Origin: Candidatus Omnitrophica bacterium UBA6215
Lineage (GTDB): Bacteria > Omnitrophota > Gorgyraeia > Pluralincolimonadales > Pluralincolimonadaceae
Direction: 5' to 3'
Assembly (NCBI GenBank): GCA_002421665.1
Contig: DISH01000007.1
Coordinates: 17,278-81,277 of the forward strand
DNA length: 64,000 nucleotides
Under the pieces are notes generated by a model that saw only the letters and a program-made list of their open reading frames with translations, was not told where the DNA came from and made no database searches. Shown piece by piece: positions 15,649 through 55,477 of the stretch. The first letter of the stretch is position 1. Every line of letters starts with the position of its first letter. The position numbers and the translations under genes were made by a program.

Positions 15649-15725
<77 letters not shown>

Positions 15726-15757
15726 GTATTTCTCTACCCCCTATATAGGGGAAATTA

Positions 15758-25992: not shown

Positions 25993-26098
25993 TTTAGTCG
26001 GTAATAATATAACATATACGCTCAAAATAAGGCAACCTTTTTATGGTTGCAAATTCGGCCGATAATCGGTATAATTTACTAAGTTTTTAAAGAAAACC

Positions 26099-28706: not shown

Positions 28707-31700
28707 ATGGAAAGCGGGAAACGCGAGCTTTCCAGGATCTCCAAAAGACTTACGGACTTCCTCCAGGAACTCCCCCGCCCCGGTTATCTTTGGCCGTATT
28801 CCGTAACTTATCTTCTTGATAAATTCGGCAAAATAAAAAGAGGTAAGTTCAGATATGCCACGCCGGGACAGCACAATTTCGTGATGTCCGAAATAATCGT
28901 CAGAAAAGCCCTCGCCAAGATCATCTACCGGAATACCGCATGGCTCGAGAGAAGCTACAGGAGGGAAAAGAGGTCTATAAACAAGAGGCTCTGCACCCTT
29001 TACGGGACGGTCGAAGACTGTCAAGCCGACGATATCTCTGTAACACCTGGTGCCTTGCGCGAGATATTCCTGCTTGAAAAACGCAAAACCAGCCTGGACA
29101 AGATGCTTGCCGACAAACGGCTTGAAATACAAGGCAAGGTCCTGCATGATTTCATGTCCATATTCGAGGATGATATCAGGAAGGCCAGCAGCATAGAGGA
29201 CTTCACGGACTTTTCGCAGATATTTGCGAACCTAAGGGACGGGGTAAGATCAAACGATAACTATAAAATAAATGAGGCCGTAAACGCGCTTTCGGAAAAG
29301 CTGGTAGTCCCTTCCGAACTTCTTTCCAGAAGGATAATAGGCCACCGCTTGGGCGACCATGAACTCAGCCTTCTGGGAAAGTTCACCAGGGAACTTGATA
29401 ATTACCCGGAATACAAGGATGCCGTCGCCAACCTGAGGGATTTCGGGAGGTATCGCAAGGCAGTCCTGTTAATAGACCAGCTCCGCAAAAGCAAGGATAT
29501 CCTTATCCCCCCTCCTTTCGTAAAAGGCACAAAAGCCCGGATATATGAGGGTCTGACCCGATCGATGCGCCTTTTCTTCGCGACGATGATAGCGATAATA
29601 CCTACCCTCACCGTGTACGGCATCGGGGGAATAAGCCATCTGCCGTTATGTACTTTCATGTGGATGGCAGCTTGTTTCGGGGTTACGTACTATATATCAT
29701 GGCAGCCCTCCCATAAAATGGCCCTGTTCCTGGTCAGCCTTATGGTAAACACACCCGGGCATAAAATGCTCCCGGAGCTCGGAAAATACATAGACTCCAA
29801 CTATACGGAAGACAAGCCGCTTAAAATATCCTATGTAACGGCTAAAAAAAGCGATACGGAATCGGATGCCGAGATAGCCATATTTTATTTCAGGAAAACC
29901 ATCGAAGCCCTGAGGCCGACCCTCGAGACTTTCGGGAAAAAGATATTGCTCGTCATCACTTTCTGGTCGGATACGAAAAATGACAGCATCATAGAATATG
30001 AGGTAAAAAGGCTCGAAGAATTTTCCAGGGAACATCCCTATGATAACCTTGAATTCCTTTACCTGAACAGGTCTAAAAGCGAATGGTTCGACAACACAAA
30101 GCTCGGCATGATAAGAATAGGCGGTTTTGCCGGTAAGGTTGGCGGTATAGGCAACCTGATGCACCTGATGAACACCGGCCAGACCAAACCTTATCTCTTT
30201 ACCGACGAAGGCTTCGAATTCACCCAGAACAGGAATAAACCCCTTATTTGCAGGGTGTGGTCGACGAACCTCGTGAAGGCACTGGGCGTCGACACCGGTA
30301 AGGAGCAGATAACCTCCGAACGGGCCGCCGAACGTATCTTGCGCGGCGACGATATAGATATAGACCCGTCCAGGATATCCGAGTTCTGCGTTATCATGGA
30401 CGATAAGAACGAGCTGTATGCCGGCGAGCTTGAAAAAGCGCTTGCAATACTCCTGCACCCGGAAAACGAACACATAGTGATCGCCCAGCCCCATATAGCC
30501 ATCACCCCTCCTTACCTCAACGGCAAGGCCAAGGAAAGCATCTACTGGAAGATAATGAAGAATGAGCGCGATATAGAGAACGAGATAAACATGAAAGTCA
30601 TCTCCGGGATATACGGCAAGGAGCGCGCATTCTTCGGCAAAGGTTTCGCCAGGACAAAGATATATTACGACAGGGTATTTAAACCTGAGACCCTCTCTCC
30701 TGCCAAGGTTTTGTCCCATGACTGGCAGGAATCGATATTCAGCAGGAACTGCGAGGGCCTTTTGGGTGCCAAGAGGTTTATCGTGAAGAAGGTCTCGGAA
30801 AAACCAGGTTCCGCAGTCCTGAGGATAGACCTTGCCAATACCACAAGGTTCGTACGCCTTGAGAGGGACGCGCAAAAAGACGTACTCGTCTATCATCTCG
30901 ATATCGCTTCCGGGGAATACCGGTTCGTCAGGAAATTCCGCCGCCTGGAAAACCTGGATATGGACGAGGTGGTCAAATACACGGCGAATTTCTACAATAA
31001 TGCGGTCATTGTAGGCGAACGCGACCAGCTGCATTTCGTCACTTACATTATCCGCGACGTCAGGTGGCTTATCGGCGATTTCCAGGCCATAAGGACCCTT
31101 ATATCCTACCGCAGGATACTCACATATTACCACCAGTGGCACCTTAGCTGGGCCATCGGAAGGCTCCTCTCCGATCCCATGCTTTTCTGTTTCATAATAT
31201 TAATGTGCCTCCTTTGGATATTCCCGTTCATCCTTGTAGTGCCGACTAACTCAAATGCGTATTGGATAACTCTTGTCCTATCCTTCTTCGGGATCATATT
31301 TGTCCACAGGTTCATCGACCCCGTAAGGTATATCTTCCGCAGGGCGCGCGCCGAAGGCAGACCTATACGCCCCCTCTCCTTCTCTCTTGAGCTCGTAGAC
31401 CAGTTCTTCGACAGCATCCTCCAGGCGATGGAAACTACCGTGTCTTCTCTGCAGTTAACGGTCATAAAACCGCTGCTTTCATATTCGATATACAAATCAG
31501 AAAAAATCAATAAGGTCCCGGAATGGAAAACTTCCAGTACCCTTTCACTTATGGAGCTCGAGGGCAGGATAACCAGGAACGAGTTCAAGGACATCAGGAT
31601 AGAAGAAGCCCAGAAGATGGGCCTTATAATATCCGCCATAGCGGCAATATACATAATCACGGGCATAGCGCCGATAACGGTTTTCGGCATATTCGGTATA

Positions 31701-34700
31701 CTGCCTTGGGCAGGTTCGCTTATCTTCGGCCGTTACGCTATCTCCGCTATAGGTAAAGTGCGCGACCTTAATACCCGCAAGGCCACTATACAGGAAAGGA
31801 CAAAAAGGCTGTATGTCATAATATCCGCTATCCTTCTCCTGCTGGTAACATTGTCCGCGCTCAGGGACATCCCTAGCTACAATAAACACGACCTTATTAA
31901 ATTCGTCCTCCCGGAATCAAGGGAAAGGTTCAGCTATTCCGCCGAAGAAGAGAGGCTCCTTGGAAAGATGCGCAAGGACCTCGAAAAGATCGAGTTCTAT
32001 ATACCCGACAGGATAGTCGACAGCAAGCTCTCTCCCGTGCTTAAATCCCGCGAGGGAAAGACAAAGCTGATGGCCGAGGTCCTTCCCGTAGAGGATAAAC
32101 TCTCCAGAGCAATACCTCTCTTAAGGCCCGTCACGCGGGATGCTGTAGCTCCCATAATAACCGAGGCGGTCTCCCCCCTCGAAGAACCGGAGCTCTCCGA
32201 CCTGACGGCTTTCAGGGATTTTTTCTCCGCTTCCCACAAGATGGGAAAAAGAAGGCTGTTCACTTCTACTGCCCTCGCCGGGACAAAAATAGCGCTCTCC
32301 ATGCAGTTCTCCGCCGCGGCTATAGCGATAACTGCCGTAGACAGGGTCGAGGGATTGGGCATGATAGCGCGTTACGGCAAGGAATACCCGTGGTTCAATG
32401 TACTCGACCCCCTTACGGGACAGTTCTGGTTCGAGACAAGCAGGGAAACCGGGCTTTCAATGAAAGATATAGCGGAGGTATTCAGGTGGGAGGACACAAA
32501 GAAATACTGGAATGCCGATTTTGCCAAGAAGAAGGGCATCTGGAAACGCTATGAATACCTCCAGAGAGGAATATTATCCCTGTACTATTCCGGATTAGAG
32601 GTCAACGAGCAGAACCTTAGGAAATTCTTTGCTGAATACGACAAGATGCCGCAATTCAGGAAAAAATACCCGGCAGTCCCTCTCAAACCTTTCCGGCTTG
32701 TACCTGAACCGGCAAAGACCCTTCTGCAGCTCATTGGAACGGTAACTTTCTATGTCCCTGTAATCGAGATCATCCCCGCAACCGAGATACCTTTCGGGAC
32801 TATATTAGGCATAGTGGAAACGGTGGTAGCCGGTAAACAAGGTAAGCTGGAATACCTTATAGTAACAGGCATGAAGAACGGCTTGTCCACCGAGGAAGTA
32901 ATGGAACACCTCGGCTTCGACTATGTAAACTATGCATGGCGCAAGACGCGTATCCCGTCAGAAATATATGATGTCAACCGGCAAAGGTTCCTCGCCGATT
33001 ATAAGAAAAAGGGCGTCGATAAGGTTGACTACGAAAGAAGCGACATAAAACTTATATGCATACTCTCCGATTACAGGATGGCCCTCGATACCCGGGAAAC
33101 CCTGGGGTATGAAGAGAAGCCGTCGAATCCCCAGATCAAGGAGACGGCGGACGCGCTGCGCGGATATCTTGTAGACATATGGAACGACGTACAAAAACGT
33201 TATCCGGAGCTCGAAGACGGCATAAAGGCAAAAGGTATAGGCGAATACCTTGCTATTTCATATTACGTGATGTCACGCAGGTATGGATGGGGTCTCGAAC
33301 AATACCTTGATTTCCTTGGCCCGCAGCTAAAGAAGGCCGTAGAGTTAAAGGATAAAGGCATCACTCTCGATGATAGAACGATATATGAGATCATGTTCAA
33401 TAACGAGATACTCCAGAAGGGCCTCTATGACGATCCCAGACTCCAACCGGAAAAGAACGCTGTCTTGATATCCCGCCTGGACAGGCAGATCGAAAAACAA
33501 TCGGATGCCGGCAAGCAGATGACAGGATATATCTGGCTGTCTTCCCTTATGCTGGATGCCGAAAAGAACGGCATAAAAGTTGATCCCGGCGAATTCGCCT
33601 TGAAGTTCATGGAGATATACGAGACGGGGCTGTCGCTGGGCTATACAGAAATACCATGGTGGGAAAAATGCGGATACCTTACCCTGATATACTACAAGGC
33701 CGGGTTCGGGACCACTATGGAACTTTTCGACTACTTCAAGAACGAATTCAGCATGTCCAACACGTGGCTCAAGGATAAACTTCCTCTCCCGGAAGGGTTC
33801 GTACACGGTGTAATGGAAACTACTTATAGGGACATGGGGTACGGCAGTGACCAGGCTGCAATATTGGAAACGCAGACTCCTGAGAAACTTAAGTTTGACA
33901 TGGCATATGAGTTCCTGGCAGCGCTCGTGATAGAGACAGAAACTAACAAACTCAAAATTTCACCCGAAGACCTGGCCTCGGAGTTCATGGCCTTTTACAG
34001 GACCGGATCCGCTTCGGGGTACAACAGGATACCATGGTGGAACATAAGCGGTTACCTGATGCTTGAATACGAAAAGAACAGGGCATTTCACGGATGGGAG
34101 AACATAGACGATTATTTTGCGTACTACACTCCGTTGTTCGCATCCATAAACAAGTGGTTTACGCAGGACCTAAGCCTTCCCGAAGGATTTGAATATGAGA
34201 ACGCTTTCCGCCTCGAGATATTGAAACGTAAGCTGGATCATGATCCCAGGCATGCAAAGGATGGCAGCCGGTCATTACAGGTCATTAAAGACACGGCGGA
34301 GAACCAGACCCCCGTCATCAAACGGTTCAACGCCTATATGACACTAGCCAGGCTTAAAGAGGACTATGCCCTGGATTTCGGGCGGCAACTGGACGATACG
34401 GAAGTCCTGCATTTGGCGGGAATACTCACGACCTTCTGGACCGAACTGCCGGTCAAATATCCGAACCTCCCCCTCTTCGTTCCCGGTATCATTGAAAAGA
34501 TAGCCATTAATTCTCTCGCATTCAATGACTACCGCGATGTTGAAAAAGCTGCTTTCCTCCAGCAGATAAACAGTCTCTGGGATTTAAAAGTGCCCGGGCC
34601 GATAGAATCGGGGATAAGAAAAGAGGTTGAAGAGAAGACAGGCATAGACCTGGATGATGAACGGATCCTTCATTACACCACCTTACAAACGGCCATCGGC

Positions 34701-36233
34701 ATACTCGACAGCCTGGGCGCAGCGGTCATCGAACCGGACATAGTAAGGACCTTACAGCTACGCCAGGCGATCAGGTCCGTTTCTAAACAATATCCCGACC
34801 TGGAGCTGCTCAAACAAGGCAATGCCGAATGGATGGCCGTGTACGCCCTGAAAAAGAAACTGACATTTTATGAGCTCCAGGAGAAATATCTTAAGCCGAT
34901 ACAGCAGATATATAAAGACGCGGCAAACGCCTACTTCCCGAGAGAGATAGATATCATGACCGGGAAACTTAAGGATATAAACGAAAGGGACATCGGGGTA
35001 ATAACTGATATATACGGGCTGAAGGACAAGGGTTTCGCGGCGCAGCCTAAGATAAGCGCGAACGACGTTATCGTAAATGTCATATGGTATCACCTGCAGA
35101 GGGCTTACGATATAGGCATACCCGAGAAAGACATCCCGGTATTCTTCAGGGTATTAAGAGCGGTAAAAGAGAATGACCTCGCGCACTTGGTCTCGATAGA
35201 GTCGGCGGATGAGCTTTCCAAATGGCAGGAAAAGATGGATTCCGCTTCATTTCGCCTCATGACTCTTTATAATGACCCGCGGTCAAGGAAAAAATTCAAG
35301 TCCCCGCCGGACTTCCTTTACAAGTTCCTGTCGAACAGCACCGCGGTCAGGGAGAACCCGGCTATCAGCTCCAAGTTAAGTTCGATCAGGTCCGCGGACG
35401 AAAAGGTCGCCGACTCGCTTGAATTCCTCTGGCCGCTTCTTATGACACTGGAAAATATCTCCCCTTCGGTCATGGAGAATATAGTATCCAATATGAGCTA
35501 TGTGACATCCTCATACAAGGAGCTACTGGGCATGCAGCCTGAAAAGGACTCTGCCGTTGAGTTCAATGAGGCGGTCAATGTCTACCTGACCGGGGAATAC
35601 GGAAAGTTCCTCATAAGGCAAAAAACGAACTACCAAAGGGCGCAGTCTTCGTGGTGGACAAACTACATAGTAAAACTCAGTTACAGGAGGCTGTTTAACG
35701 AGAACCTTGATGAGGCGGAAAGGACAAACCGCAAAATATTGAAGAACATGCAGGTATGGTTCGACAGGGAAAAACTTAAGAACCCGCATAGCTATGTCCT
35801 CAAAAAGATAGTGGAAAACCTTATCGAACACGGTTCGATAAAAAGGATCGGGCTCATGAGGCCTGTCTATAGCGGCAAGAACGAATACAAAAACCGTATA
35901 CTCAGGCTCAACAGATATATTAACCGGCTCGATTCGGAGATAGCCCTGTTAAAATCCGAAAACCGCTATTCTGCCGACCTTGAAAAAATATCGGCCAAAG
36001 CAAAAGAAGATCTCGCGGAAATCGAAAAATCTCCTTCTGAACTCACAAAAAAAGCCATAGAAGCCGAGAGACTCCTGCTTTTCTACAGACAGGTACATAA
36101 CAGGGATTCTTTGTTCCTTACGGCTATGATAGCTGCCGGAATGATAGGTACTATACTGCTATCCCGCCTTATTCTTTTAGTCAAAATAATGTTATCCGGC
36201 ATTGTGCGCCGCCTGCACCCGCTAGAATCCTAG
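28707..36233 (+). CDS. Giant (2508 aa) polytopic membrane protein. Core is OpgH/MdoH- or cyclic-glucan-synthase-like processive GT2 glycosyltransferase flanked by TM bundles. Followed by ~1450-aa alpha-helical extension with tandem ~125-aa repeats and a C-terminal TM anchor.
   Basis: Uninterrupted 7.5-kb ORF. TM clusters at aa ~295-345, ~785-850, ~930-1010 and at the C-terminus. Between the first two clusters: DxD (VIMDDKNE), LSHDWQES (compare OpgH LSHDFVEA / BcsA TED) and RDVRW (compare OpgH RDRRW / QxxRW). Repeats FMEIYETGLSLGYTEIPWW... / FMAFYRTGSASGYNRIPWW... at ~33606-34360. Confidence 0.5.
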   Translation: MESGKRELSRISKRLTDFLQELPRPGYLWPYSVTYLLDKFGKIKRGKFRYATPGQHNFVMSEIIVRKALAKIIYRNTAWLERSYRREKRSINKRLCTLYGTVEDCQADDISVTPGALREIFLLEKRKTSLDKMLADKRLEIQGKVLHDFMSIFEDDIRKASSIEDFTDFSQIFANLRDGVRSNDNYKINEAVNALSEKLVVPSELLSRRIIGHRLGDHELSLLGKFTRELDNYPEYKDAVANLRDFGRYRKAVLLIDQLRKSKDILIPPPFVKGTKARIYEGLTRSMRLFFATMIAIIPTLTVYGIGGISHLPLCTFMWMAACFGVTYYISWQPSHKMALFLVSLMVNTPGHKMLPELGKYIDSNYTEDKPLKISYVTAKKSDTESDAEIAIFYFRKTIEALRPTLETFGKKILLVITFWSDTKNDSIIEYEVKRLEEFSREHPYDNLEFLYLNRSKSEWFDNTKLGMIRIGGFAGKVGGIGNLMHLMNTGQTKPYLFTDEGFEFTQNRNKPLICRVWSTNLVKALGVDTGKEQITSERAAERILRGDDIDIDPSRISEFCVIMDDKNELYAGELEKALAILLHPENEHIVIAQPHIAITPPYLNGKAKESIYWKIMKNERDIENEINMKVISGIYGKERAFFGKGFARTKIYYDRVFKPETLSPAKVLSHDWQESIFSRNCEGLLGAKRFIVKKVSEKPGSAVLRIDLANTTRFVRLERDAQKDVLVYHLDIASGEYRFVRKFRRLENLDMDEVVKYTANFYNNAVIVGERDQLHFVTYIIRDVRWLIGDFQAIRTLISYRRILTYYHQWHLSWAIGRLLSDPMLFCFIILMCLLWIFPFILVVPTNSNAYWITLVLSFFGIIFVHRFIDPVRYIFRRARAEGRPIRPLSFSLELVDQFFDSILQAMETTVSSLQLTVIKPLLSYSIYKSEKINKVPEWKTSSTLSLMELEGRITRNEFKDIRIEEAQKMGLIISAIAAIYIITGIAPITVFGIFGILPWAGSLIFGRYAISAIGKVRDLNTRKATIQERTKRLYVIISAILLLLVTLSALRDIPSYNKHDLIKFVLPESRERFSYSAEEERLLGKMRKDLEKIEFYIPDRIVDSKLSPVLKSREGKTKLMAEVLPVEDKLSRAIPLLRPVTRDAVAPIITEAVSPLEEPELSDLTAFRDFFSASHKMGKRRLFTSTALAGTKIALSMQFSAAAIAITAVDRVEGLGMIARYGKEYPWFNVLDPLTGQFWFETSRETGLSMKDIAEVFRWEDTKKYWNADFAKKKGIWKRYEYLQRGILSLYYSGLEVNEQNLRKFFAEYDKMPQFRKKYPAVPLKPFRLVPEPAKTLLQLIGTVTFYVPVIEIIPATEIPFGTILGIVETVVAGKQGKLEYLIVTGMKNGLSTEEVMEHLGFDYVNYAWRKTRIPSEIYDVNRQRFLADYKKKGVDKVDYERSDIKLICILSDYRMALDTRETLGYEEKPSNPQIKETADALRGYLVDIWNDVQKRYPELEDGIKAKGIGEYLAISYYVMSRRYGWGLEQYLDFLGPQLKKAVELKDKGITLDDRTIYEIMFNNEILQKGLYDDPRLQPEKNAVLISRLDRQIEKQSDAGKQMTGYIWLSSLMLDAEKNGIKVDPGEFALKFMEIYETGLSLGYTEIPWWEKCGYLTLIYYKAGFGTTMELFDYFKNEFSMSNTWLKDKLPLPEGFVHGVMETTYRDMGYGSDQAAILETQTPEKLKFDMAYEFLAALVIETETNKLKISPEDLASEFMAFYRTGSASGYNRIPWWNISGYLMLEYEKNRAFHGWENIDDYFAYYTPLFASINKWFTQDLSLPEGFEYENAFRLEILKRKLDHDPRHAKDGSRSLQVIKDTAENQTPVIKRFNAYMTLARLKEDYALDFGRQLDDTEVLHLAGILTTFWTELPVKYPNLPLFVPGIIEKIAINSLAFNDYRDVEKAAFLQQINSLWDLKVPGPIESGIRKEVEEKTGIDLDDERILHYTTLQTAIGILDSLGAAVIEPDIVRTLQLRQAIRSVSKQYPDLELLKQGNAEWMAVYALKKKLTFYELQEKYLKPIQQIYKDAANAYFPREIDIMTGKLKDINERDIGVITDIYGLKDKGFAAQPKISANDVIVNVIWYHLQRAYDIGIPEKDIPVFFRVLRAVKENDLAHLVSIESADELSKWQEKMDSASFRLMTLYNDPRSRKKFKSPPDFLYKFLSNSTAVRENPAISSKLSSIRSADEKVADSLEFLWPLLMTLENISPSVMENIVSNMSYVTSSYKELLGMQPEKDSAVEFNEAVNVYLTGEYGKFLIRQKTNYQRAQSSWWTNYIVKLSYRRLFNENLDEAERTNRKILKNMQVWFDREKLKNPHSYVLKKIVENLIEHGSIKRIGLMRPVYSGKNEYKNRILRLNRYINRLDSEIALLKSENRYSADLEKISAKAKEDLAEIEKSPSELTKKAIEAERLLLFYRQVHNRDSLFLTAMIAAGMIGTILLSRLILLVKIMLSGIVRRLHPLES
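33606..34360 (+). repeat. Two diverged tandem protein-level repeats (~125 aa each) inside the giant ORF (IPWW..GYL..LPEGF module)
   Basis: Aligned by eye: FMEIYETGLSLGYTEIPWWEKCGYLTLIYYKAG...LPLPEGF versus FMAFYRTGSASGYNRIPWWNISGYLMLEYEKNR...LSLPEGF. Preceded by a weaker third copy. Confidence 0.6.
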
Positions 36234-45902: not shown

Positions 45903-46463
45903 TTAGGACGAATGCATAAGGGCAAGGGCTTCGGCGCGCGTCTTCTCGTTCTCCCTGAAGACCCCCCTTACGGCACTTGTAACGGTAGATATGCCCGGCT
46001 TCTTCAAGCCCCTCATTGACATGCATAGATGTTCGGCCTCTATGACAACCATGCACCCGCGCGGTTTCAATACCTTCATTATAACCTCGGCGATCTGCGT
46101 GGTCAATCTTTCCTGGACCTGCGGTCTCTTCGCAAGTATATCTATAGCCCTTCCCAGTTTGCTCAAACCGGTAACCCTTCCCTCCCTGGGTATATAGGCT
46201 ATATGCGCCCTTCCCAGGAACGGCAGAAGATGGTGCTCACAAACCGAATACAAAGGTATGCCTTTTAACAATATTATCTCCTCATGTTTCTGGTCGAGAA
46301 CCACCTCGAGTTCTTTAGCGGGGTTCTCCTTTATCCCTGAAAATATCTCCTCGTACATCTCGGCTACCCTGCGCGGGGTCTCCAGCAGGTCCTTCCGTTT
46401 AGGGTCTTCTCCGACCGCTTCCAATATCATATACACTGCCTTCATTATCTTCTTTTTGTCCAT
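45903..46463 (-). CDS. folE: GTP cyclohydrolase I
   Basis: 186 aa, ...[10 protein letters not shown]... motif. Confidence 0.9.
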
Positions 46464-46475
46464 CTATGCTCTCCT

Positions 46476-47828
46476 CTATTTTCCTATACAGAAACTCGAG
46501 AAGACCCTGTCGAGGATATCCTCGTCGAAAGTCTCTCCCGCTATTTCACTTATATGGTCAAGGCATTCCCTTATGTCGACCGCCGCCAACTCGGCGGATT
46601 GCCCTCCTTCAACGGCCCCCAGGGCCCTGCTTGCCGCTTCTGCGGCCTGCCTGCAAGCCTCTTTCTGCCTGAGGTTAGAGATCGCGCAGCCCTCTTGTCC
46701 GATTACGGCGCCTCCGAAGACGGCCTCGGCCATGGCAGTCCTCAACTTATCTATAGCATAACCTTTTTTGGCGGAAACCTCAACAGTTCCCGGGGCCTTG
46801 AAATCTATCTTGCGGGGTAAGTCCGACTTATTGATCACTATTATGCGCGGCCTGCCTTCCGTATCCTTGAGCAATGCGGTGTCTTCGCCGCTAAGCGGTA
46901 CTCCCGCATCCAGCACAAGCATTACCAGAGAAGCATTCTTGATATGCTCGCGGCTTCTTATGATCCCCTGCTTCTCCACGATATCCGCGCTGGAGGTTAT
47001 TCCCGCAGTATCGATAAGCCTGAAAGGTATTCCTTCGATATCTGCATATTCCTCTATAGAATCCCTTGTGGTACCCGGCACATGGGTCACTATAGCCCTC
47101 TCTTTTTTCAGGAGGGCGTTGAGCAGGCTGGATTTTCCGACGTTCGGTTTCCCGCATATTACGCAGGAAACCCCTTCGCGCATTATTATACCTTTATTGG
47201 CGCTGTCGGCCAGTTTTTTAAGGGAAAAAAGGACGGATCCAAGCCTTTCTTTCGTGCAGGCCTCGGATATTATCTCGAGGTCCTCCTCGGGAAAGTCAAC
47301 GGACGCCTCTACTCCCGCCAATATGGATATTACCTCGTCTTTTATGCCCTTGACCGCGGCAGAAAGCCCTCCATCAAGCCGTTCCAGGGCCATGGCCATA
47401 GAACTGTCCGTCTTCGATCTTATGATGTCAAGAACGGCCTCGGCCTGGGCAAGGTCTATCCTCCCATTGATGAAAGCGCGCCTGGTGAACTCTCCGGGTT
47501 CGGCAAGCCTGGCGCCGGCCCTCAAAGCTCCGGAAAGGACTTTCCTGAGCGGCACCACTCCCCCGTGACAGCTTATCTCTGCCATGTCCTCTTTCGTGTA
47601 GCTCTTCGGTGCCCGCATTACCGCCAGCAGGGCTTCGTCTACATCCAAATCACCGTCCATGACCCGGCCGTAATGAATGGTAAATGACTTGAAAGTAGAA
47701 GGCGCTTTCCCCGTCTTGGACCTGAAAATCCTGCCGGCGATCTCAAGGCAGCGGTTTCCGCTCAAGCGGACGATACCTATAGCGGATTCTCCGATGGGGG
47801 TGGATATAGCCGCTATAGTGTCTTCCAT
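46476..47828 (-). CDS. mnmE: tRNA modification GTPase MnmE
   Basis: Start at internal Met (MEDTIAAISTP...), G-domain GKPNVGKSSLLN, C-terminal CIGK. Confidence 0.9.
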   Translation of the reverse strand: MEDTIAAISTPIGESAIGIVRLSGNRCLEIAGRIFRSKTGKAPSTFKSFTIHYGRVMDGDLDVDEALLAVMRAPKSYTKEDMAEISCHGGVVPLRKVLSGALRAGARLAEPGEFTRRAFINGRIDLAQAEAVLDIIRSKTDSSMAMALERLDGGLSAAVKGIKDEVISILAGVEASVDFPEEDLEIISEACTKERLGSVLFSLKKLADSANKGIIMREGVSCVICGKPNVGKSSLLNALLKKERAIVTHVPGTTRDSIEEYADIEGIPFRLIDTAGITSSADIVEKQGIIRSREHIKNASLVMLVLDAGVPLSGEDTALLKDTEGRPRIIVINKSDLPRKIDFKAPGTVEVSAKKGYAIDKLRTAMAEAVFGGAVIGQEGCAISNLRQKEACRQAAEAASRALGAVEGGQSAELAAVDIRECLDHISEIAGETFDEDILDRVFSSFCIGK

Positions 47829-47835
47829 ATCTATT

Positions 47836-49188
47836 TTATGCTGTTTGTTCATAATTGCCGGCCTTTTTCCCAAGGTAGTCAAGCGCTTCCCCGACTACGA
47901 ACAGCGAGCCGGTCACCAGGACCATGTCGGAAGGCCCGGCCTCCCTCAGGGCCAGCTCTACGGCTTCTTTGACATTAAAAGTCGATACATATTTATCTGC
48001 GTAGCCGGGAACGTCCGCCTTGACCTTTTCGGGCGGGATAGCACGCGGTGTAGCTGCAGTCGTAAGGAATATACTGTCGGCTATCGGGAACAGGTTCGCC
48101 GATATCCCGGCTATGTCCTTGCCCGAAGAGACCCCGAAGACCATCAACAGTCTTTTATACTTGAATATCTCTTTTACGGAATCGCGCAAGGCTTTCGCTG
48201 AAGCCTCGTTCTGCGCGCCATCGAGAACCACCAGGGGCGAGTTCCCGAATACCTGAAGTCTTCCCGGCCACCTGACATTTTGGACGCCTTTGGCTATATC
48301 GCGCGAGGAGACGGTCATACCCTTATCTGCAAGGGACTCAATTATGCCTATAGCGGTCGCGGCATTCGCCGCCTGATGCCTGCCGAGCAACGGTGTCCTG
48401 AGCATCGGGTAGTCTCCTGACAGGCCCCGGACATTGAAAGTCTGGCCATGCTCGTCAAATTCCACGATCTCATATGATATATCCCTGCCAACCGCATACA
48501 GTTTAGCGTTCTTGGCGGAAGCCGCACCGGTTATGCACGACATAACGGCGGGGTCCTGCTGTGCGGTAACAACGGTACAACCGTCCTTAATGATCCCGCA
48601 TTTCTCTTTTGATATCGCTTCCAGGGTCTTGCCGAGCTTGTCGGTGTGGTCAAAACTTATAGGGGTTATGCCTATGGCCAGGGGGTCTACTATATTCGTT
48701 GCATCAAGCCTTCCGCCCATCCCTACCTCCACTACCGCCACTTCTACCTTTTTTATCCCGAAGAACAGTAATGCCAGGGCCGTGTAGACCTCAAAAAACG
48801 ACGGCGGGCCGAACTTTGAGGATTTCGAGAAGTTATCCACGAACAGTTTTATCCTGCCGACAAGGGCGGCTATCTCCTGCTCGTTTATCGCCCTGTCCCT
48901 GGGGAACGATACTCTTATGCGCTCGCTGAAATTTATAAGGTGCGGGGATGTATATAATCCCGCTTTCACCCCGCTTTCCTTTAGGATTGAATAAATAAAG
49001 GCACAGGTGGATCCTTTGCCTTTTGTGCCGGCGACATGTATGGTCTTGAAATTTTTCTGCGGGTTACCGAGGCCGTCGAGCAGGGCGCGAACCCTGCTTA
49101 ATTTCATCGCGCCCTGGTAATTGAAATCCGAGTTCTTTTCATAATCAATGAAGGATTCGAGGTATCGTATCGCTTCCTGATACGTCAT
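47836..49188 (-). CDS. folC: Folylpolyglutamate synthase / dihydrofolate synthase
   Basis: 450 aa Mur-ligase-family FolC (HVAGTKGKGST). Confidence 0.85.
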   Translation of the reverse strand: MTYQEAIRYLESFIDYEKNSDFNYQGAMKLSRVRALLDGLGNPQKNFKTIHVAGTKGKGSTCAFIYSILKESGVKAGLYTSPHLINFSERIRVSFPRDRAINEQEIAALVGRIKLFVDNFSKSSKFGPPSFFEVYTALALLFFGIKKVEVAVVEVGMGGRLDATNIVDPLAIGITPISFDHTDKLGKTLEAISKEKCGIIKDGCTVVTAQQDPAVMSCITGAASAKNAKLYAVGRDISYEIVEFDEHGQTFNVRGLSGDYPMLRTPLLGRHQAANAATAIGIIESLADKGMTVSSRDIAKGVQNVRWPGRLQVFGNSPLVVLDGAQNEASAKALRDSVKEIFKYKRLLMVFGVSSGKDIAGISANLFPIADSIFLTTAATPRAIPPEKVKADVPGYADKYVSTFNVKEAVELALREAGPSDMVLVTGSLFVVGEALDYLGKKAGNYEQTA

Positions 49189-49191
49189 TGA

Positions 49192-50760
49192 TCAATGCCT
49201 GAAATGCCGTATTCCGGTCATTACCATGGCTATACCGGCTTTGTCGGCGGCCTTTATGGAATCTTCGTCCTTGATCGAACCGCCCGGCTGCATTATCGCC
49301 GATATCCCGGCCTTTCCGGCCAACTGGACCGAATCAGGCTTGGGAAAAAACCCGTCGGTGGCAAGACAGGCTCCCTTTGCTTCCTTGCCGGCCTTCCTTA
49401 CAGCTATCCTGGCCGAATCGACCCTGCTTGGCTGACCGCCCCCTATACCGACAGTCCTTTCGTCCCTGGCTACCACTACGGCGTTAGACCTGACATACTT
49501 GGCGACTTTCCAGGCAAAGATAAGGGATTTCAAGTGTGCGGCGGAAGGCTTCCTTCTTGTCACCGTCTTAAGATCCTCCGGACCGGCATCCATAAGGTCC
49601 TGTTCCTGGAGCAAAAGACCGCCCTCTATCTTCTTCAGGTCGCACGAGTATATACCTTTATCAGAGCGGTCATGCGGATATCCGTATTCTATGACCCTGA
49701 GGTTCTTTTTTTCTTTCAATATATCAAGGGCGCCCGTGTCGTAAGCCGGGGCTATAACGCATTCCATGAAACCGGATTCCGTTATGGCCTTCGCGGTCTT
49801 CACGTCAACCTTCCTGTTTAGGCCGATTATTCCGCCAAATGCGGAAAGCGGGTCGCAGGCAAAAGCATCCTTGTATGCCTTATCAAGTTTTGTAGAAGAA
49901 GCCACGCCGCAGGGAGAATTATGCTTTACTACACAGGCCGTAGGCGTTTGGAAATCGTTGGCTATCTGTATAGCGCCCTGCAGGTCGAGGAAATTATTGA
50001 AAGAAAGTTCCTTCCCGTGCAGCTGTTTCATGCCGCCGAAACCGTACTTGGGCTTGGCTGAATCAGCATAAAATGCGGCTTTCTGATGCGGATTCTCCCC
50101 GTAACGCAGGCCCTGGGCCCTCTCGAATACCAGGTGGAGGATCTCGGGGAACTTGTCCTTAAGGGGGGCGAATTTCCCGCCCAGGAAGGAGTAGATGCCG
50201 GCATCGTATTTTGCGGTGTGGCCGAATGCTTCAACGGCCAGCGTTTCGAGCGTCTCCTCCGATAAGCAGCAGCCTTTCTCCTGCAGCTCCATCAATATCC
50301 TGAGGTACCTGTCGGGGTTGCATACCACGGCCACGTCCCGGTAGTTCTTGGCCGCCGAACGCAGCATCGCAGGCCCGCCTATATCTATCATCTCAATGGC
50401 GTCTGTAAGTTTTACCTTAGGGTTACGGACGGTCTCCTCAAAGGGATAGAGATTGACCACAACCATGTCTATCAGGCCGATCTTATGCTTCTTTACCTGC
50501 GCCATATGCTCACGCTCGCTGCGTATAGCAAGGATCCCTCCGTGTATCTTGGGATGCAGGGTCTTGACGCGGCCGCTGAGCATCTCGGGAAAACCGGTGA
50601 CATCCGAAACGGCCTTTATCTTTATCTTGTTTTCGCGAAGGGCCTTGGCCGTCCCTCCCGTAGAGATTATCTCAACACCGAGTTTCTCGAGGCCCTTGGC
50701 GAAATCTACTATGCCTTTTTTGTCTGAAACGCTGATCAGGACACGCTTAATTTTAGCCAT
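49192..50760 (-). CDS. purH: Bifunctional AICAR transformylase / IMP cyclohydrolase
   Basis: 522 aa, MGS-like N-domain (MAKIKRVLISVSDKKG) + AICARFT domain. Confidence 0.9.
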   Translation of the reverse strand: MAKIKRVLISVSDKKGIVDFAKGLEKLGVEIISTGGTAKALRENKIKIKAVSDVTGFPEMLSGRVKTLHPKIHGGILAIRSEREHMAQVKKHKIGLIDMVVVNLYPFEETVRNPKVKLTDAIEMIDIGGPAMLRSAAKNYRDVAVVCNPDRYLRILMELQEKGCCLSEETLETLAVEAFGHTAKYDAGIYSFLGGKFAPLKDKFPEILHLVFERAQGLRYGENPHQKAAFYADSAKPKYGFGGMKQLHGKELSFNNFLDLQGAIQIANDFQTPTACVVKHNSPCGVASSTKLDKAYKDAFACDPLSAFGGIIGLNRKVDVKTAKAITESGFMECVIAPAYDTGALDILKEKKNLRVIEYGYPHDRSDKGIYSCDLKKIEGGLLLQEQDLMDAGPEDLKTVTRRKPSAAHLKSLIFAWKVAKYVRSNAVVVARDERTVGIGGGQPSRVDSARIAVRKAGKEAKGACLATDGFFPKPDSVQLAGKAGISAIMQPGGSIKDEDSIKAADKAGIAMVMTGIRHFRH

Positions 50761-50811: not shown

Positions 50812-51384
50812 TCAGTATTTTAGAAGGCGGGATTCCTGCCTGTAGAGCTGTATCTCCCGGCGGAGAACGGCTATCTCTTCCTCTAAAGGAGTCAGCTCCC
50901 GCATCGATTTCTCTATGCTGCCGCGCAATTCCGCCTGTTCCTGGTCCGAAAGGTTCAGCTTCTTGTTCCCGAGCAATCCGTTCTGGTTCTTTATGGAGCT
51001 CTTAATGGAAGCCGCGCGGGCTTCCTTGCCCGCCAGCTTCATCTTTATCTCTTCTATTTTAAGATTTACTCTCTGCCTGTCCGGCTCAAGTCGTGAAGAC
51101 AGCTCCTTTGTCTTTGCGTAGAGCTCTTTCCTTGCGGCCTTAAGCTCTTCTTCCAATTCCATTATTTTTGAATTGACCTCTCCCTGTCTTGTCCTGAATT
51201 CACCCTTAAGGGTCTCTATCTGGGCATCGATATCCGCTTTCTTATCCAGGACTTCCTTGAAAGACGGATCAAAATCCACGAGAGCGGATTTGATCTCTTC
51301 GATATTCTGACGGGGGCCGCATCCGCAGACAAAGAATAAGAAAACCAAAACAACGGCAGAAAGGGAAAATACTCTGCTGTTCAT
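50812..51384 (-). CDS. Hypothetical coiled-coil lipoprotein
   Basis: 190 aa with signal peptide + lipobox (FFVCGCG), remainder predicted coiled coil. Confidence 0.4.
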   Translation of the reverse strand: MNSRVFSLSAVVLVFLFFVCGCGPRQNIEEIKSALVDFDPSFKEVLDKKADIDAQIETLKGEFRTRQGEVNSKIMELEEELKAARKELYAKTKELSSRLEPDRQRVNLKIEEIKMKLAGKEARAASIKSSIKNQNGLLGNKKLNLSDQEQAELRGSIEKSMRELTPLEEEIAVLRREIQLYRQESRLLKY

Positions 51385-51388
51385 TGTC

Positions 51389-52606
51389 TTATGCCGCAGC
51401 CGTCTTAGACTCTGACGGTTTGGATTCTTTTGCGGCGGTCTTATTTTGTTTTGCTACGGACGGGACAAGCCTGGTTATCTCCCCATCCTCGATAGGTTCA
51501 TAATAGGTAAATATCTGTCCCTCATAATTCCTGAGGGTAAAGGCGCCCTTCTGCTGCGATATGACATAATTGGGCGCTACGGGTATCTTTCCGCCCCCTC
51601 CTGGCGCATCGACCACATAAGTGGGCACGGCATATCCGGAAGTATGCCCGCGAAGTTTCTCCATTATGTTTATACCGGTGGATATAGGCGTCCTGAAATG
51701 GCTTATTCCTTTAGCCGGATCGCACTGGTATATGTAATACGGGCGTACACGCGCCTTTAAGAGCTCGTGCATAAGCCTGCGCATAGTGGAAAGCCTGTCA
51801 TTGACACCGCGCAAAAGTACTGTCTGGCTGCCGAGAGGTATACCGGACTCTACAAGCATGTCACAAGCCTTTTTACAGCGCTTCGTGATCTCTTTAGGGT
51901 GGTTAAAATGCAGGGATATCCATATAGGCCCGTATTTTTTGAACATGGATACAAGATTTTCGGTCACCCTCATCGGCACCGTCACCGGCATCCTTGTCCC
52001 GAGGCGTATAAACTCTATGTTAGGTATGGCCCTGAGATTCTTGAGTATATCCTCCAAGGTCTCGTCCGGGAGCATGAGAGGATCTCCGCCGGAGATCAGA
52101 ACGTCGCGTATCCTGCGGTTCGCCTTAAGGTATTCGTATGCTTTTTCGAAGTTTTGGGGGCTGGTAAGGTGCGCTTCGGAGCCTACTATCCTGCGCCTGG
52201 TGCAATGACGGCAATACATCGCGCACTTTTCCGTGACCAGGAGCAGGACCCTGTCCGGGTACCTGTGGACAAGCCCGGGTACGGGAGAATCCTTATCCTC
52301 GCCGCACGGATCTTCCATGTCGTTGGGGGAAACATCGAATTCCTCGGACGCGGGTATGCACTGCTTCCTTATCGGGCAAGTCGGCCTCATGGTATCTATC
52401 ATGGACAGCCAATACGGGGTTATGGCCATCAAGAGCCTTCCCTTGCTCCTCTTGACGCCTATCTCCTCCGAAGGGGTAAGTTTGATGACTTCCTTAAGGC
52501 CGTCATAGGTCATGATCCTGTTCCTGATCTGCCAATGCCAATCTTCCCAATCCGTTTCAGGCACATCCTTCCAATGCTCGGCTATGGAATTAGCGGAAGT
52601 TATCAA
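51389..52606 (-). CDS. kamA: L-lysine 2,3-aminomutase (radical SAM, PLP)
   Basis: 405 aa. N-terminus WEDWHWQIRNRI matches the KamA family, radical SAM CAMYCRHCTRR. Confidence 0.8.
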   Translation of the reverse strand: MITSANSIAEHWKDVPETDWEDWHWQIRNRIMTYDGLKEVIKLTPSEEIGVKRSKGRLLMAITPYWLSMIDTMRPTCPIRKQCIPASEEFDVSPNDMEDPCGEDKDSPVPGLVHRYPDRVLLLVTEKCAMYCRHCTRRRIVGSEAHLTSPQNFEKAYEYLKANRRIRDVLISGGDPLMLPDETLEDILKNLRAIPNIEFIRLGTRMPVTVPMRVTENLVSMFKKYGPIWISLHFNHPKEITKRCKKACDMLVESGIPLGSQTVLLRGVNDRLSTMRRLMHELLKARVRPYYIYQCDPAKGISHFRTPISTGINIMEKLRGHTSGYAVPTYVVDAPGGGGKIPVAPNYVISQQKGAFTLRNYEGQIFTYYEPIEDGEITRLVPSVAKQNKTAAKESKPSESKTAAA

Positions 52607-53649
52607 CGCAGGCTCCTTTCGTGTAGGACGAGACTACCGTTTTTCGTATGTCTTTCGATCGCCACATCCAGTATCCTGTTCATCAGGGCGGGATAATCCA
52701 GACCCGCGCATTTGGCAATAAAAGGAAAATTTGAATCGATCGGATCGAGCCCGGGAAGAGGGTTTATCTCCAACACATAAGGCACCCCTTCCTTGTCCAG
52801 TATTATATCCACCCGTGAAAGGTCTACGCAGCCCAAGGCGTTGAATGCCTTTATGGCCGTATCTCCCACCAAGGCCTCTTCCTGCTTCGTCAGCCTTGCG
52901 GGACAATGCCATATGGGGCTCAATCCCTTACTGTCTTCGACCTCTTTCTCGAATTCCTTGACCTTCCATGTATAGAAAAACTCGCCCGAAGCCCTGCAAT
53001 TAGAAAAATCTATCTCCAATATAGGGAGCACCGCGGGGGGTGAATTACCTATTATGCCGACCGTCAATTCCCTTCCTTCTATAAACTCTTCGACAAGTAT
53101 CTCCTGCCGGTATGTCTTGTAAGTCTTACAGACCTCTTTCTCGAGTTCTGCCCTGTTACGGACCACGCTTGTTATGGTTATTCCTTTCCCCGAGCCTTCC
53201 CTGTTCGGCTTGACTATTAACGGATACCTGAGGCCCTCATCGGATATTTCAGCCGGCTCTTCTATAAGCTTGTAGCGCGGTGTGGGTATCCCGGCCTGTT
53301 CGAATATCTTTTTAGTAAATGCCTTGTCAAGAGAAGCGCTGAGGGCAAGGACCCCCGAACCGGTATATGGTACGCCTAAAAAATCCAGGATGGCCGGAAC
53401 CTGCGCCTCCCTGGACTCGCCGTTTATCCCTTCGGCTATGTTAAAAACTATATCTATCTTGTTAGACTGGAGCCAATTAAGGAGCCCTTTATCGGCCTCA
53501 ACCAGGAATACTTCGTTCCCCCTCGAACGCAATCCGTTTGCGATCGCTTCTATGGTCTCCTTGCTGTCAAATTCCGAATAATAATCATCCGGAAGCCCTT
53601 CCTCTACCTTCCTTTTGAGATTATAAGTGAAAGCCACTTTTTGGCCCAT
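52603..53649 (-). CDS. D-alanine--D-alanine ligase family ATP-grasp enzyme (paralog 1)
   Basis: 348 aa Ddl-like N-domain/ATP-grasp (...VLEINPLPGL...). 4-nt overlap with kamA. Confidence 0.7.
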   Translation of the reverse strand: MGQKVAFTYNLKRKVEEGLPDDYYSEFDSKETIEAIANGLRSRGNEVFLVEADKGLLNWLQSNKIDIVFNIAEGINGESREAQVPAILDFLGVPYTGSGVLALSASLDKAFTKKIFEQAGIPTPRYKLIEEPAEISDEGLRYPLIVKPNREGSGKGITITSVVRNRAELEKEVCKTYKTYRQEILVEEFIEGRELTVGIIGNSPPAVLPILEIDFSNCRASGEFFYTWKVKEFEKEVEDSKGLSPIWHCPARLTKQEEALVGDTAIKAFNALGCVDLSRVDIILDKEGVPYVLEINPLPGLDPIDSNFPFIAKCAGLDYPALMNRILDVAIERHTKNGSLVLHERSLR

Positions 53650-54672
53650 CTATAACATACCGTACCTTTCCAACGCGCAGTCGATGATCCTGTTTATGAT
53701 ACTGTTATAAGATATCTTCATGTACCTTGCAACCACCATAAAAACATCCTCGGTAGATAAAGAGGGCAACGGATTGATCTCCAGGACATACGGGTTGCCG
53801 CGCTTATCCACTCTTATATCGACCCTGCCAAAATCCCTGCACTCCACGGCATTATATGCCTTCAGCGCGACATCCTTGAGTTTTTTCTCCAACGCCCTTG
53901 TTATCCTGGAAGGGCATACATAGCACAACGTATTCGAGTGTATCCTGGAAAATGTGTAACACAGGTCTCCGAGGTTGGTCTTCCCGTTGATGCTTATCTG
54001 GACGACCGGAAGGGCCTCGGCATCCTTGCCGTTGCCGATCACGGGAACGGTGAATTCCGAACCTGTTATGAAACTCTCCACCAAAGCAGGCTGTTTATAC
54101 GTACGTATAACCCATTCCGCCTGCCTGATAAGGTCTTTCCTGTTCTTTACGATAGACTTATCGCTTATCCCCTTGCTTGAACCCTCCTGTCGGGGTTTTA
54201 CTATAAGCGGGAAGTCTGCGCCCGTTCCGTCTACCTTCCCGGCATCGGATACCTGGAAAAAAGACGGGGTCGGCACGCCTTCGGACATCAGCACTTTCTT
54301 CGCCATTACCTTATCGAGGGTCAGCCCTAAACTGAGGCCGTCTGCGCCGACAAAAGGTATTCCTTCCATCTCCAAAATCACGGGTACTTCGGATTCCCTG
54401 TTGCGGCCCGACAGCCCTTCGGCAATATTAAATACTATGTCGACATCCAGTTTCTTGATGCGGCGCAAGAGATTCCTTACGTTACCGATCTTGACGACCT
54501 TATGCCCACCCGATTCTATAGCGTCTTTTATGACCTCTATAGTATCCGGATGGTCAAACTCCGCATTGGCATCCTCGGGATCGGAATCCTTCAATATATA
54601 GTCCGGCTTGATGTCGTAGGTCAAGCCCACTATCTTGCGCGCCTTCTTTTTTTTTGCTCCAATATTTGCCAT
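53650..54672 (-). CDS. D-alanine--D-alanine ligase family ATP-grasp enzyme (paralog 2)
   Basis: Start placed at internal Met (MANIGAKKKK...). Same family as paralog 1 (...VLEINPLPSL...). Abuts the stop of paralog 1. Confidence 0.7.
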   Translation of the reverse strand: MANIGAKKKKARKIVGLTYDIKPDYILKDSDPEDANAEFDHPDTIEVIKDAIESGGHKVVKIGNVRNLLRRIKKLDVDIVFNIAEGLSGRNRESEVPVILEMEGIPFVGADGLSLGLTLDKVMAKKVLMSEGVPTPSFFQVSDAGKVDGTGADFPLIVKPRQEGSSKGISDKSIVKNRKDLIRQAEWVIRTYKQPALVESFITGSEFTVPVIGNGKDAEALPVVQISINGKTNLGDLCYTFSRIHSNTLCYVCPSRITRALEKKLKDVALKAYNAVECRDFGRVDIRVDKRGNPYVLEINPLPSLSTEDVFMVVARYMKISYNSIINRIIDCALERYGML

Positions 54673-54692: not shown

Positions 54693-54733
54693 AAAAAAGA
54701 AGGGACTTCCCCATTTAGAAGTCCCTTCTTTTA
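54693..54733 (-). terminator. Rho-independent terminator hairpin (AAGAAGGGACTTC-loop-GAAGTCCCTTCTT) followed by a U7 run on the minus strand
   Basis: Perfect 13-bp inverted repeat with 8-nt loop. Minus-strand transcript of the 54782..55477 gene would terminate before the ddl paralog 2 start. Confidence 0.6.
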
Positions 54734-54781
54734 AAGTGCTAGTTGAAAATATCCAACTTTTGGTACCAGTCCCTCCCTAAC

Positions 54782-55477
54782 CTATTTTTTCTTCCATTTG
54801 TCGACGATCTCAGACATCATCTTGCCGGCTATATCTTTCGAGCCGAGGCCAAAGGCTAACCCTAAGGCCAGACCGGTGGCGGCCAAGGCTACTACCACCG
54901 CCGTGTCCAGGATGAAAGTCCTGACGCCCAACATCGGGAGAACGGTTAGAACCGTAATTACTACTATTGATATCTGGGCTATCTGGCCGAGATTCTTTGC
55001 CGAAGCAACGCCGGCATTGGATGCCGTCGTCCTGACTATGGAACCTATCAGAGCGGCGAAGAAGAGGCCGAGTACGAGCACAAATATGCTCAAGATCACC
55101 ATGCCCGCGTATTTTACTGCTCCATCAAGGAAGCTGCCCGCCATAACATCCGGATTTGGATTCACAAGGTTGAGGGTTATTATCACGACCACCAACGCCA
55201 TAAGCCAGTAGATGACCACACCGATAAGTTCGGATAAGGTATGCTTGATCTCACCTTTGGCAAGAATGCTGGCGATCCCCGCCTTCTCAGATAAGACATC
55301 AAAACGAGCAACTTTAAGGACTTGTACTACCACCTTCTCAATAACCTTCGCGATTATTATACCGGCTATGAATACAATTAACGCGACGATTATTTTCGAA
55401 AGGTAGAGCGCTAAATTACTCCATACCTGGCTCCAGGTATCGAGAATAATCTGGACTGCCTGTCCTCCCTGATCCAT
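54782..55477 (-). CDS. Membrane protein with repeated conserved TM-helix modules (MscS-N-terminal-like TM_helix repeats)
   Basis: 231 aa with five hydrophobic helices of a repeating pattern. No channel domain. Confidence 0.35.
   Translation of the reverse strand: MDQGGQAVQIILDTWSQVWSNLALYLSKIIVALIVFIAGIIIAKVIEKVVVQVLKVARFDVLSEKAGIASILAKGEIKHTLSELIGVVIYWLMALVVVIITLNLVNPNPDVMAGSFLDGAVKYAGMVILSIFVLVLGLFFAALIGSIVRTTASNAGVASAKNLGQIAQISIVVITVLTVLPMLGVRTFILDTAVVVALAATGLALGLAFGLGSKDIAGKMMSEIVDKWKKK

Follow-up and report, generated by a model that had tools for sequence, protein, structure and literature searches.

A lysine 2,3-aminomutase gene coupled to two paralogous Ddl-superfamily ATP-grasp ligase genes in Omnitrophota, a candidate route to a beta-lysine amide

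The known fates of beta-lysine are few: it serves as an osmolyte after acetylation, in the modification of elongation factor P (EF-P), as an intermediate of fermentation and as a building block of antibiotics. In the PylB/PylC system of pyrrolysine biosynthesis, the product of a radical S-adenosylmethionine (SAM) lysine mutase is joined by an ATP-grasp ligase, through an amide bond, to an amine of lysine. An ATP-grasp ligase domain is also present in Ngg, an enzyme of N-acetylglutaminylglutamine amide (NAGGN) biosynthesis. Annotated as a member of the GCN5-related N-acetyltransferase (GNAT) family, Ngg catalyses peptide-bond formation in NAGGN as well as the acetylation of glutamine, and its operon includes a peptidase gene (PMC8070244). 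In addition, the negamycin cluster is reported to encode both beta-lysine formation and an ATP-grasp protein (10.1101/2025.05.27.656397), such that the view of an earlier sequence-only reading of the present locus, that no route from beta-lysine uses an enzyme of the D-Ala-D-Ala ligase type, needs softening. Here we describe a three-gene unit, lig1-lig2-kamA, in a 64,000-nucleotide stretch of DNA from Candidatus Omnitrophica bacterium UBA6215 (hereafter the window), in which a predicted lysine 2,3-aminomutase gene follows two genes for paralogous ATP-grasp ligases of the D-alanine-D-alanine ligase (Ddl) superfamily.

The three genes are tightly coupled, are conserved throughout the phylum Omnitrophota and recur together in other phyla, and the pocket of the two ligases is not that of Ddl. 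We propose that they form one module, in which the paired ligase uses the beta-lysine made by KamA to build an amide or peptide of small size that could serve as an osmolyte; we consider this proposal to stand about the same chance of being right as of being wrong. Our literature search found no paper linking kamA with Ddl-like ligases or describing such a cluster in Omnitrophota.

The lig1-lig2-kamA unit within and beyond Omnitrophota

All three genes lie on the minus strand and are transcribed in the order lig1 (53650..54672, 340 aa), lig2 (52603..53649, 348 aa) and kamA (51389..52606, 405 aa). They were identified from the open reading frame (ORF) and its ribosome-binding site, Pfam, NCBIfam and a DdlB residue map (lig1), from Pfam, NCBIfam and an AlphaFold2 model (lig2), and from the TIGR03820 model together with alignment to the solved lysine 2,3-aminomutase 2A5H (kamA, a radical SAM enzyme dependent on pyridoxal phosphate, PLP). 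The ORF listing agrees with the coordinates and strand that the sequence-only reading gave for all three genes, and the 4-nt overlap and zero spacing it described are likewise borne out; the order in which it listed them, along the plus strand, is the reverse of transcription. The lig1 ATG at 54672 has a ribosome-binding site, GAGGA, 4 nt upstream, and an alternative longer ORF from 54714 would start within the loop of a terminator hairpin. The lig1 TAG abuts the lig2 ATG with no spacing at all, and kamA starts at a TTG within GCGTTGA, where it shares 4 nt with the end of lig2, and has AGGAG 7 nt upstream. Because the N-terminus of KamA aligns with 2A5H from residue 10 (residues 10-373 align end to end), we take the upstream TTG start, giving 405 aa, to be real and the public call of 374 aa to be truncated. 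Public gene calls for this same genome (L001-L003) place the lig1 start differently, yielding proteins of 354 aa (with the start inside the terminator loop) or 340 aa; the kamA call of 374 aa, in L001, cuts the conserved N-terminus, and the Logan calls in L002 and L003 begin at the TTG of the 405-aa protein.

A scan of one genome per species returned 344 stretches with relatives, of which the best 80, representing distinct loci, were examined. The order lig1-lig2-kamA is kept in 80 of these 80 species-level Omnitrophota loci, wherever the contig reaches far enough, and across 82 loci lig1 is present in 80, lig2 in 82 and kamA in 81. Among 52 other Omnitrophota genomes with complete ORFs, the gap between lig1 and lig2 is mostly -4 to +4 nt and a 4-nt overlap is the commonest junction between lig2 and kamA; these tight junctions are not due to chance. 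The trio alone is invariant, and each of its flanks takes at least two forms: upstream lie either genes for ribonucleotide reductase (RNR), dcd and ogg, in some cases with an msc-like gene, or genes for an M20 peptidase, a PAC2 protein, a HAD protein and a protein of no assigned family, and downstream lies a lipoprotein gene, or an elongation factor G (EF-G) paralog and YchF, followed by purH-folC-mnmE-folE.

To look outside Omnitrophota we searched 1.84 billion cluster representatives, which identified 1351 related proteins at E <= 1e-30. In two Anaerolineae assemblies the genes are arranged as GNAT-kamA-ligA-ligB, with 4-nt overlaps at both junctions, and the metagenome contig L091 carries the arrangement GNAT-kamA-lig-x-lig, with a KamA that passes TIGR03820 at 564 bits. 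The GNAT of the Anaerolineae type gives a weak match to rimI (48 bits, under the cut-off) and none to an AblB model. In a sister clade sampled from metagenomes, kamA lies directly upstream of a ligase gene in 17 of 80 loci, and in 8 of the 36 that have room on both sides; some of these loci also bear a second or third ligase gene and a GNAT gene. The association of kamA with these ligases has thus arisen or persisted in several lineages with differing gene order, and nothing else argues as strongly for a functional link. The neighbourhood survey that the sequence-only reading had called for yields pairs of kamA and ATP-grasp genes in all 80 Omnitrophota loci, in Anaerolineae and in the sister-clade metagenomes, and the functional link it had suggested between beta-lysine and the ligases is backed both by an order that persists as the flanks change and by the differently ordered operons elsewhere.

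Other relatives are organized without kamA. Many of the 1351 proteins are single polypeptides of 650-720 aa that bear two ligase domains, and such fusions are present in Halobacteriovorax, Bdellovibrionaceae, Desulfoluna and Haliangiales. In three inspected loci (L086, L087 and L088, which include Desulfoluna limicola, Halobacteriovorax sp. HLS and one metagenome contig) a fusion of ~670 aa is followed, directly or with an overlap, by a Peptidase_S58 gene, and kamA is lacking. Beta-aminopeptidases are among the members of the S58 (DmpA/BapA) family, and the fusion and peptidase could represent a synthesis/degradation pair for a peptide of beta- or D-amino acids; no S58 partner was found near the Omnitrophota trio. 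We considered and rejected orthology of the fusions to lig1 plus lig2, as a neighbour-joining tree places each half of the Bdellovibrionota-type fusions in a clade of its own, with the N-terminal halves much more diverged. Single-domain relatives in Bacillota are located after lon-engB, again without kamA. The best matches in a plasmid collection were to rhizobial symbiotic plasmids, which carry a single ATP-grasp gene with 37% identity to lig2 (~200 bits, compared to ~123 for plasmid Ddl); in the one locus inspected, that of Sinorhizobium fredii NGR234, this gene lies on pNGR234a at 207279-208289 (L175), with a CapA-family gene some 0.7 kb downstream and no kamA.

These distributions bear on the first alternative explanation, which we regard as unlikely: that the three genes simply co-reside in an old housekeeping operon and share no pathway, the ligases using other substrates (D-amino acids, another diamino acid or a polyamine) and beta-lysine going elsewhere. 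The functionally unrelated genes RNR-dcd-ogg upstream and purH-folC-mnmE-folE downstream are also conserved in many genomes, most ligase relatives outside Omnitrophota have no adjacent kamA, and the fused relatives partner an S58 peptidase instead, as would be expected of inherited synteny. However, within the phylum the trio alone stays fixed while both flanks change, and because adjacency reappears in Anaerolineae and other lineages in another order and with overlapping stop and start codons, inheritance alone hardly explains the pairing.

Sequence, fold and pocket of the ligases

Lig1 and Lig2 are paralogs with 39% identity. Both match the Pfam family Dala_Dala_lig_C (1.8e-31 and 7.9e-38, respectively); with this and generic ATP-grasp models as the only hits, neither matches the Ddl N-domain PF01820. 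Against the best Ddl model of NCBIfam, NF002378, Lig2 scores 203.5 and Lig1 171.4 bits, both under the cut-off of 243; against TIGR01205 they score 180 and 142 bits (cut-off 245.65), and both fall far under the cut-off of every Van model. The AlphaFold2 model of Lig2 has a pLDDT of 89.4, and its best matches in the PDB are Ddl structures (TM-score 0.76, 29% identity); each of the best 50 PDB matches listed belongs to the Ddl/Van family of ligases.

To compare the pockets we aligned 63 Lig1 and 68 Lig2 orthologs, with residues numbered as in E. coli DdlB, the reference sequence being identical to 2DLN. The residues for ATP, Mg and the transition state (K97, K144, E180, E187, R255, D257, E270 and N272) are invariant, and Glu and Ser occupy the E15 and S150 positions in both families; the profile alignment of Lig2 to DdlB begins at residue 33-35, although MAFFT nonetheless places a Glu at the E15 position. 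The residues that form the D-Ala pocket and omega loop (H63, K215, Y216 and S281/L282) do not follow the Ddl pattern. In both proteins H63 is replaced by Glu and E68 by Arg (E73 and R80 of Lig2), Y216 is an invariant Glu in Lig2 (E232), and S281 is Asp in Lig1 and Glu or Asp in Lig2; the acidic replacements at H63, Y216 (in Lig2) and S281 are invariant or nearly so among the 63-68 orthologs of each family. In Lig1, furthermore, G276 is replaced by Ser, and K215 of the omega loop by Ile, Leu or Val, with no conserved basic residue anywhere in that loop. Both ligases also share a family-specific N-terminal motif, YNLKR...SEFD. Because the ATP and Mg residues are intact, the scores lie below the curated cut-offs and the pocket is recharged, we classify Lig1 and Lig2, on sequence grounds, as Ddl-superfamily ATP-grasp ligases with a differently charged pocket and not as ordinary D-Ala-D-Ala ligases; the acidic residues would fit a cationic substrate such as beta-lysine. 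By the curated cut-offs and pocket residues, neither protein is of the housekeeping Ddl type with which, as the sequence-only reading allowed, both might have clustered.

A tblastn search with Lig1 and Lig2 as queries revealed no Ddl homolog in the window beyond these two, and a search of the related loci with E. coli DdlB returned only genes of the lig1/lig2 type. A third, more diverged clade of Ddl-like paralogs was observed at two loci, upstream of an Omnitrophota trio (L085, 2476-3336) and within the GNAT-kamA-lig-x-lig arrangement (L091, 9045-10259); the L085 member scores 99.8 bits against the Ddl cut-off of 243, and the L091 member is also far under the Ddl cut-offs.

This profile is relevant to a second alternative, that the two ligases together provide the D-Ala-D-Ala (or D-Ala-D-X) ligase of Omnitrophota peptidoglycan, possibly as a heterodimer, with kamA incidental or feeding an unusual cell-wall precursor. 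Ddl is the closest solved family, records at JGI and some at NCBI name the orthologs D-alanine--D-alanine ligase, neither the window nor the Omnitrophota flanks examined yielded a canonical ddl, and the sole third paralog seen beside an Omnitrophota trio is itself non-canonical. In a recent preprint, K01921 is reported in 176 of 176 complete Omnitrophota genomes (10.64898/2026.06.07.730766), and these genes might be the ones so counted. Nevertheless, we judge this explanation quite improbable, given that both proteins fall under every curated Ddl and Van cut-off without a Ddl N-domain match, that acidic residues stand in place of Y216, H63 and S281 and Lig1 has lost K215, and that none of the 82 loci has mur or fts neighbours of the division and cell-wall (dcw) cluster. 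Homologous ligases also occur in Bacillota and Bdellovibrionota, which are expected to have an ordinary ddl, and the recurrent coupling to kamA in other phyla would be left unexplained.

The aminomutase and the proposed function

KamA passes TIGR03820, the equivalog model for AblA-type enzymes, narrowly (531.7 bits, cut-off 525.4), and falls short of the EpmB model TIGR03821 (238 bits, cut-off 369) and, by far, of the cut-offs of the glutamate- and arginine-aminomutase models. Its alignment with 2A5H (E = 4e-147) shows conservation of the CxxxCxxC motif (CAMYCRHC) as well as YQCD and VVDAPGGGGK, and the enzyme retains the PLP lysine (in GGGGK) together with Asp293 and Asp330 (Clostridium subterminale numbering), which we take to bind the epsilon-ammonium group of lysine. 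At the C-terminus the LAM_C profile is matched over positions 1-60 of 127 and the 2A5H alignment stops at residue 373; the C-terminal part of the clostridial enzyme seems to be missing, and the tail (51389-51500, minus strand) is low-complexity and rich in Lys, Ser and Ala. KamA is accordingly predicted to be a genuine lysine 2,3-aminomutase and not EpmB, in agreement with the sequence-only reading, which had named it as the source of beta-lysine.

Partners known from other beta-lysine pathways were not found nearby. A search of the window and of the flanks of 174 related loci, 1.9 Mb of sequence in all, turned up no efp gene (epmA was not searched for). No AblB-type GNAT was seen near the Omnitrophota trio, and the Omnitrophota flanks yielded no relative of the GNAT of the Anaerolineae cluster. 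A GNAT gene is likewise missing from the genes with Pfam annotation at three Omnitrophota loci and from the annotated genes of the window, and the latter include no kamDE or other lysine-fermentation genes, the neighbours being msc-like, lipoprotein, purH, folC, mnmE, RNR, dcd and ogg genes.

That the pair installs beta-lysine on a macromolecule, either as a beta-lysine-containing peptidoglycan precursor in place of the Ddl product or as a substitute for EpmA on EF-P or another translation factor, is in our estimate distinctly improbable. ATP-grasp enzymes such as RimK modify proteins. Attachment of beta-lysine by these ligases to a lysine or carboxylate of a protein, for example EF-P (in place of EpmA) or another translation factor, is therefore chemically feasible, and would suit a module that is phylum-wide like a housekeeping trait, that adjoins translation GTPase genes (EF-G paralog, YchF, MnmE) in many genomes and whose Anaerolineae version has a weakly RimI-like GNAT, but it is very improbable given a full-length KamA of the AblA/lysine 2,3-aminomutase type that lies under the EpmB cut-off, the absence of efp from the window and flanks searched, the resemblance of the ligases to small-molecule Ddl and not to RimK or LysX, and the fact that one transfer does not need two ligases.

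Returning to the proposed small-molecule module, KamA would convert L-lysine to beta-lysine, and the ligase pair would use ATP to activate a carboxylate as an acyl-phosphate, as in Ddl, before forming an amide bond between beta-lysine and another small molecule bearing an amine or carboxylate. Lig1 and Lig2 would probably act as a 1:1 heteromer with Lig2 as the fully equipped catalytic subunit, and the product would be a cytoplasmic metabolite resembling a dipeptide or tripeptide and containing beta-lysine. Ddl is a dimer, and a heteromer is suggested by this together with the strict 1:1 pairing of the two genes, the fact that some relatives are fused proteins with two domains, and the absence of the omega-loop lysine from Lig1. 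Two sequential ligations that yield a tripeptide-like product are equally possible. The strict pairing and the lost lysine agree with a heteromer at least as well as with two steps, such as the sequence-only reading suggested in giving the ligases different specificities for donor and acceptor positions. The most plausible role of the product may be that of a compatible solute, in the manner of N-epsilon-acetyl-beta-lysine or of NAGGN, a dipeptide osmolyte, as suggested by the use of beta-lysine as an osmolyte precursor, the frequent msc-like neighbour, the Anaerolineae GNAT and the NAGGN precedent.

Several points weigh against this proposal. We infer that beta-lysine is a substrate and that the ligases form a heteromer, and likewise what kind of compound they make and what it does, and the argument from the acidic pocket derives from alignment as opposed to a ligand-bound structure. 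Adjacency within one phylum can be inherited synteny, and purH-folC may be a case in point, being also widely kept beside kamA. Outside the phylum kamA is not adjacent in 28 of the 36 metagenome loci that have enough sequence on either side, nor in the Bacillota members, and because most members of the wider ligase family have no adjacent kamA, a link to beta-lysine does not hold for that family at large. The structure prediction for a natural double-ligase fusion gives confident halves (pLDDT 88.7) but a pTM of 0.52, and so does not bear on whether they pack like a Ddl dimer. The search for a canonical ddl extended over the window and the flanks of related loci. Finally, Omnitrophota are largely a phylum of freshwater and groundwater, where a compatible solute is not obviously needed in every member.

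The trio nonetheless points to a further fate for beta-lysine, through D-Ala-D-Ala ligase relatives of a branch not characterised before. If the proposal is correct, it would add a new and probably heteromeric ligase subfamily and a new metabolite containing a beta-amino acid. It would also correct the routine annotation of these genes as 'D-alanine-D-alanine ligase', a label that may inflate claims of complete peptidoglycan pathways. The unit comprises only three genes, which makes it compact and experimentally tractable; it belongs to the conserved core of a phylum with almost no cultured members, and Chloroflexota have it too.

Flanking features and comparison with known systems

Upstream of the trio, 54782..55477 (minus strand) encodes an msc-like small membrane protein with a transmembrane helix of the mechanosensitive-channel type (PF05552, 2.3e-7; NF033912, 52 bits, under the cut-off). 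This gene adjoins the trio in 33 of 82 loci, and in 4 of the 33 it has been relocated to directly after kamA. It is followed in the window by its intrinsic terminator at 54695..54732 (minus strand), about 20 nt before the lig1 start codon. The strong terminator that the sequence-only reading placed ahead of the cassette corresponds to this hairpin, which the scanner locates at 54732..54695 with a 16-pair stem, a 6-nt loop and a T-run, and which is kept in about 20 related genomes through compensatory changes in the stem; in 10 kb the scanner reported 4 terminator-like sites compared to 10.6 expected by chance. No riboswitch or leader was found upstream of the cassette, where Rfam gave chance-level matches to the terminator hairpin.

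Overlapping the 5' side of the terminator is a promoter-like element at 54734..54760 (minus strand), which consists of TTGGAT ... TTTAAA/TAAAAG within AAAGTTGGATATTTTCAACTAGCAC. The corresponding AAAGTTGGATATTTTCAACTAG element is conserved in L004-L019 as TTGGAT or TTGAAT, with TATAAA/TAAAAG about 15-17 nt further on, and runs into the hairpin; the consensus promoter scanner made no call at 54734-54760. A transcript begun at this element would miss the full 5' arm of the hairpin, so the terminator of the msc-like gene may harbour a promoter that belongs to the cassette.

Two features downstream of kamA were missed by the sequence-only reading. After a gap of 4 nt comes a gene for a coiled-coil lipoprotein of 190 aa (50812..51384, minus strand), which matches no Pfam family above the cut-off and is probably co-transcribed with the cassette. 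It follows kamA in only 19 of 82 loci, and is lineage-restricted and outside the conserved core. In addition, a scan of 10 kb revealed no convincing terminator between the cassette and the purH-folC-mnmE genes. The folate-linked genes purH, folC, mnmE and folE occupy 45903-50760 (minus strand) and lie downstream of the cassette in many genomes (L004-L083); a folate-related role for the trio, considered on account of these neighbours, was rejected, as it finds no support outside Omnitrophota.

Elsewhere in the window, an ORF of 2508 aa at 28707-36233 (plus strand) matches no Pfam family at E <= 1e-5, and very long proteins have been reported as a trait of Omnitrophota (10.64898/2026.06.07.730766). 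On the minus strand are a tmRNA gene (25189-26025) with the tag ANELALAA that adjoins smpB, a cluster of tRNA-His/Arg/Pro genes (15451-15835), and a glutamate-racemase-like gene that adjoins a gene for an Amidase_3 cell-wall amidase (23268-25153).

Among described systems, Ddl and VanA resemble the ligases in fold (TM-score 0.76 and 29% identity to DdlB structures), in the ATP/Mg and acyl-phosphate residues and presumably in the ligation of two substrates through a carboxylate and an amine. The differences lie in HMM scores below the cut-offs, the lack of a PF01820 match, the N-terminal motif and the altered pocket, and in gene organization, Lig1 and Lig2 being always paired or fused, outside the cell-division cluster and coupled to kamA. 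In the AblA/AblB pathway, an aminomutase of the type that passes the AblA equivalog is accompanied by an operon enzyme that then derivatises beta-lysine, as the ligases are proposed to do here; however, the Omnitrophota trio has two ATP-grasp ligases instead of a nearby AblB-type GNAT.

Ngg and AsnO, which make NAGGN, offer a likeness in the ATP-dependent, non-ribosomal synthesis of a small-peptide osmolyte, with echoes in the GNAT-kamA-lig-lig and ligase-plus-S58 versions of the present system, but they involve a different ligase subfamily, glutamine in place of beta-lysine and no aminomutase. Carnosine synthase and the negamycin enzyme are similar in that an ATP-grasp enzyme makes an amide with a beta-amino acid; these are single ligases, of eukaryotes or of actinomycete secondary metabolism, in contrast to a paralogous pair in the conserved core of a phylum. 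PylB is not of the KamA family, PylC is a single ligase that was absent among the sequence matches to solved structures, and their product is an amino acid charged onto tRNA. Nevertheless, PylB and PylC follow the same logic as the trio, in which an unusual amino acid made by a mutase would be handed to an ATP-grasp ligase, and together with the negamycin cluster (10.1101/2025.05.27.656397) they provide precedents, by analogy, for the proposed passage from aminomutase to ATP-grasp ligase.

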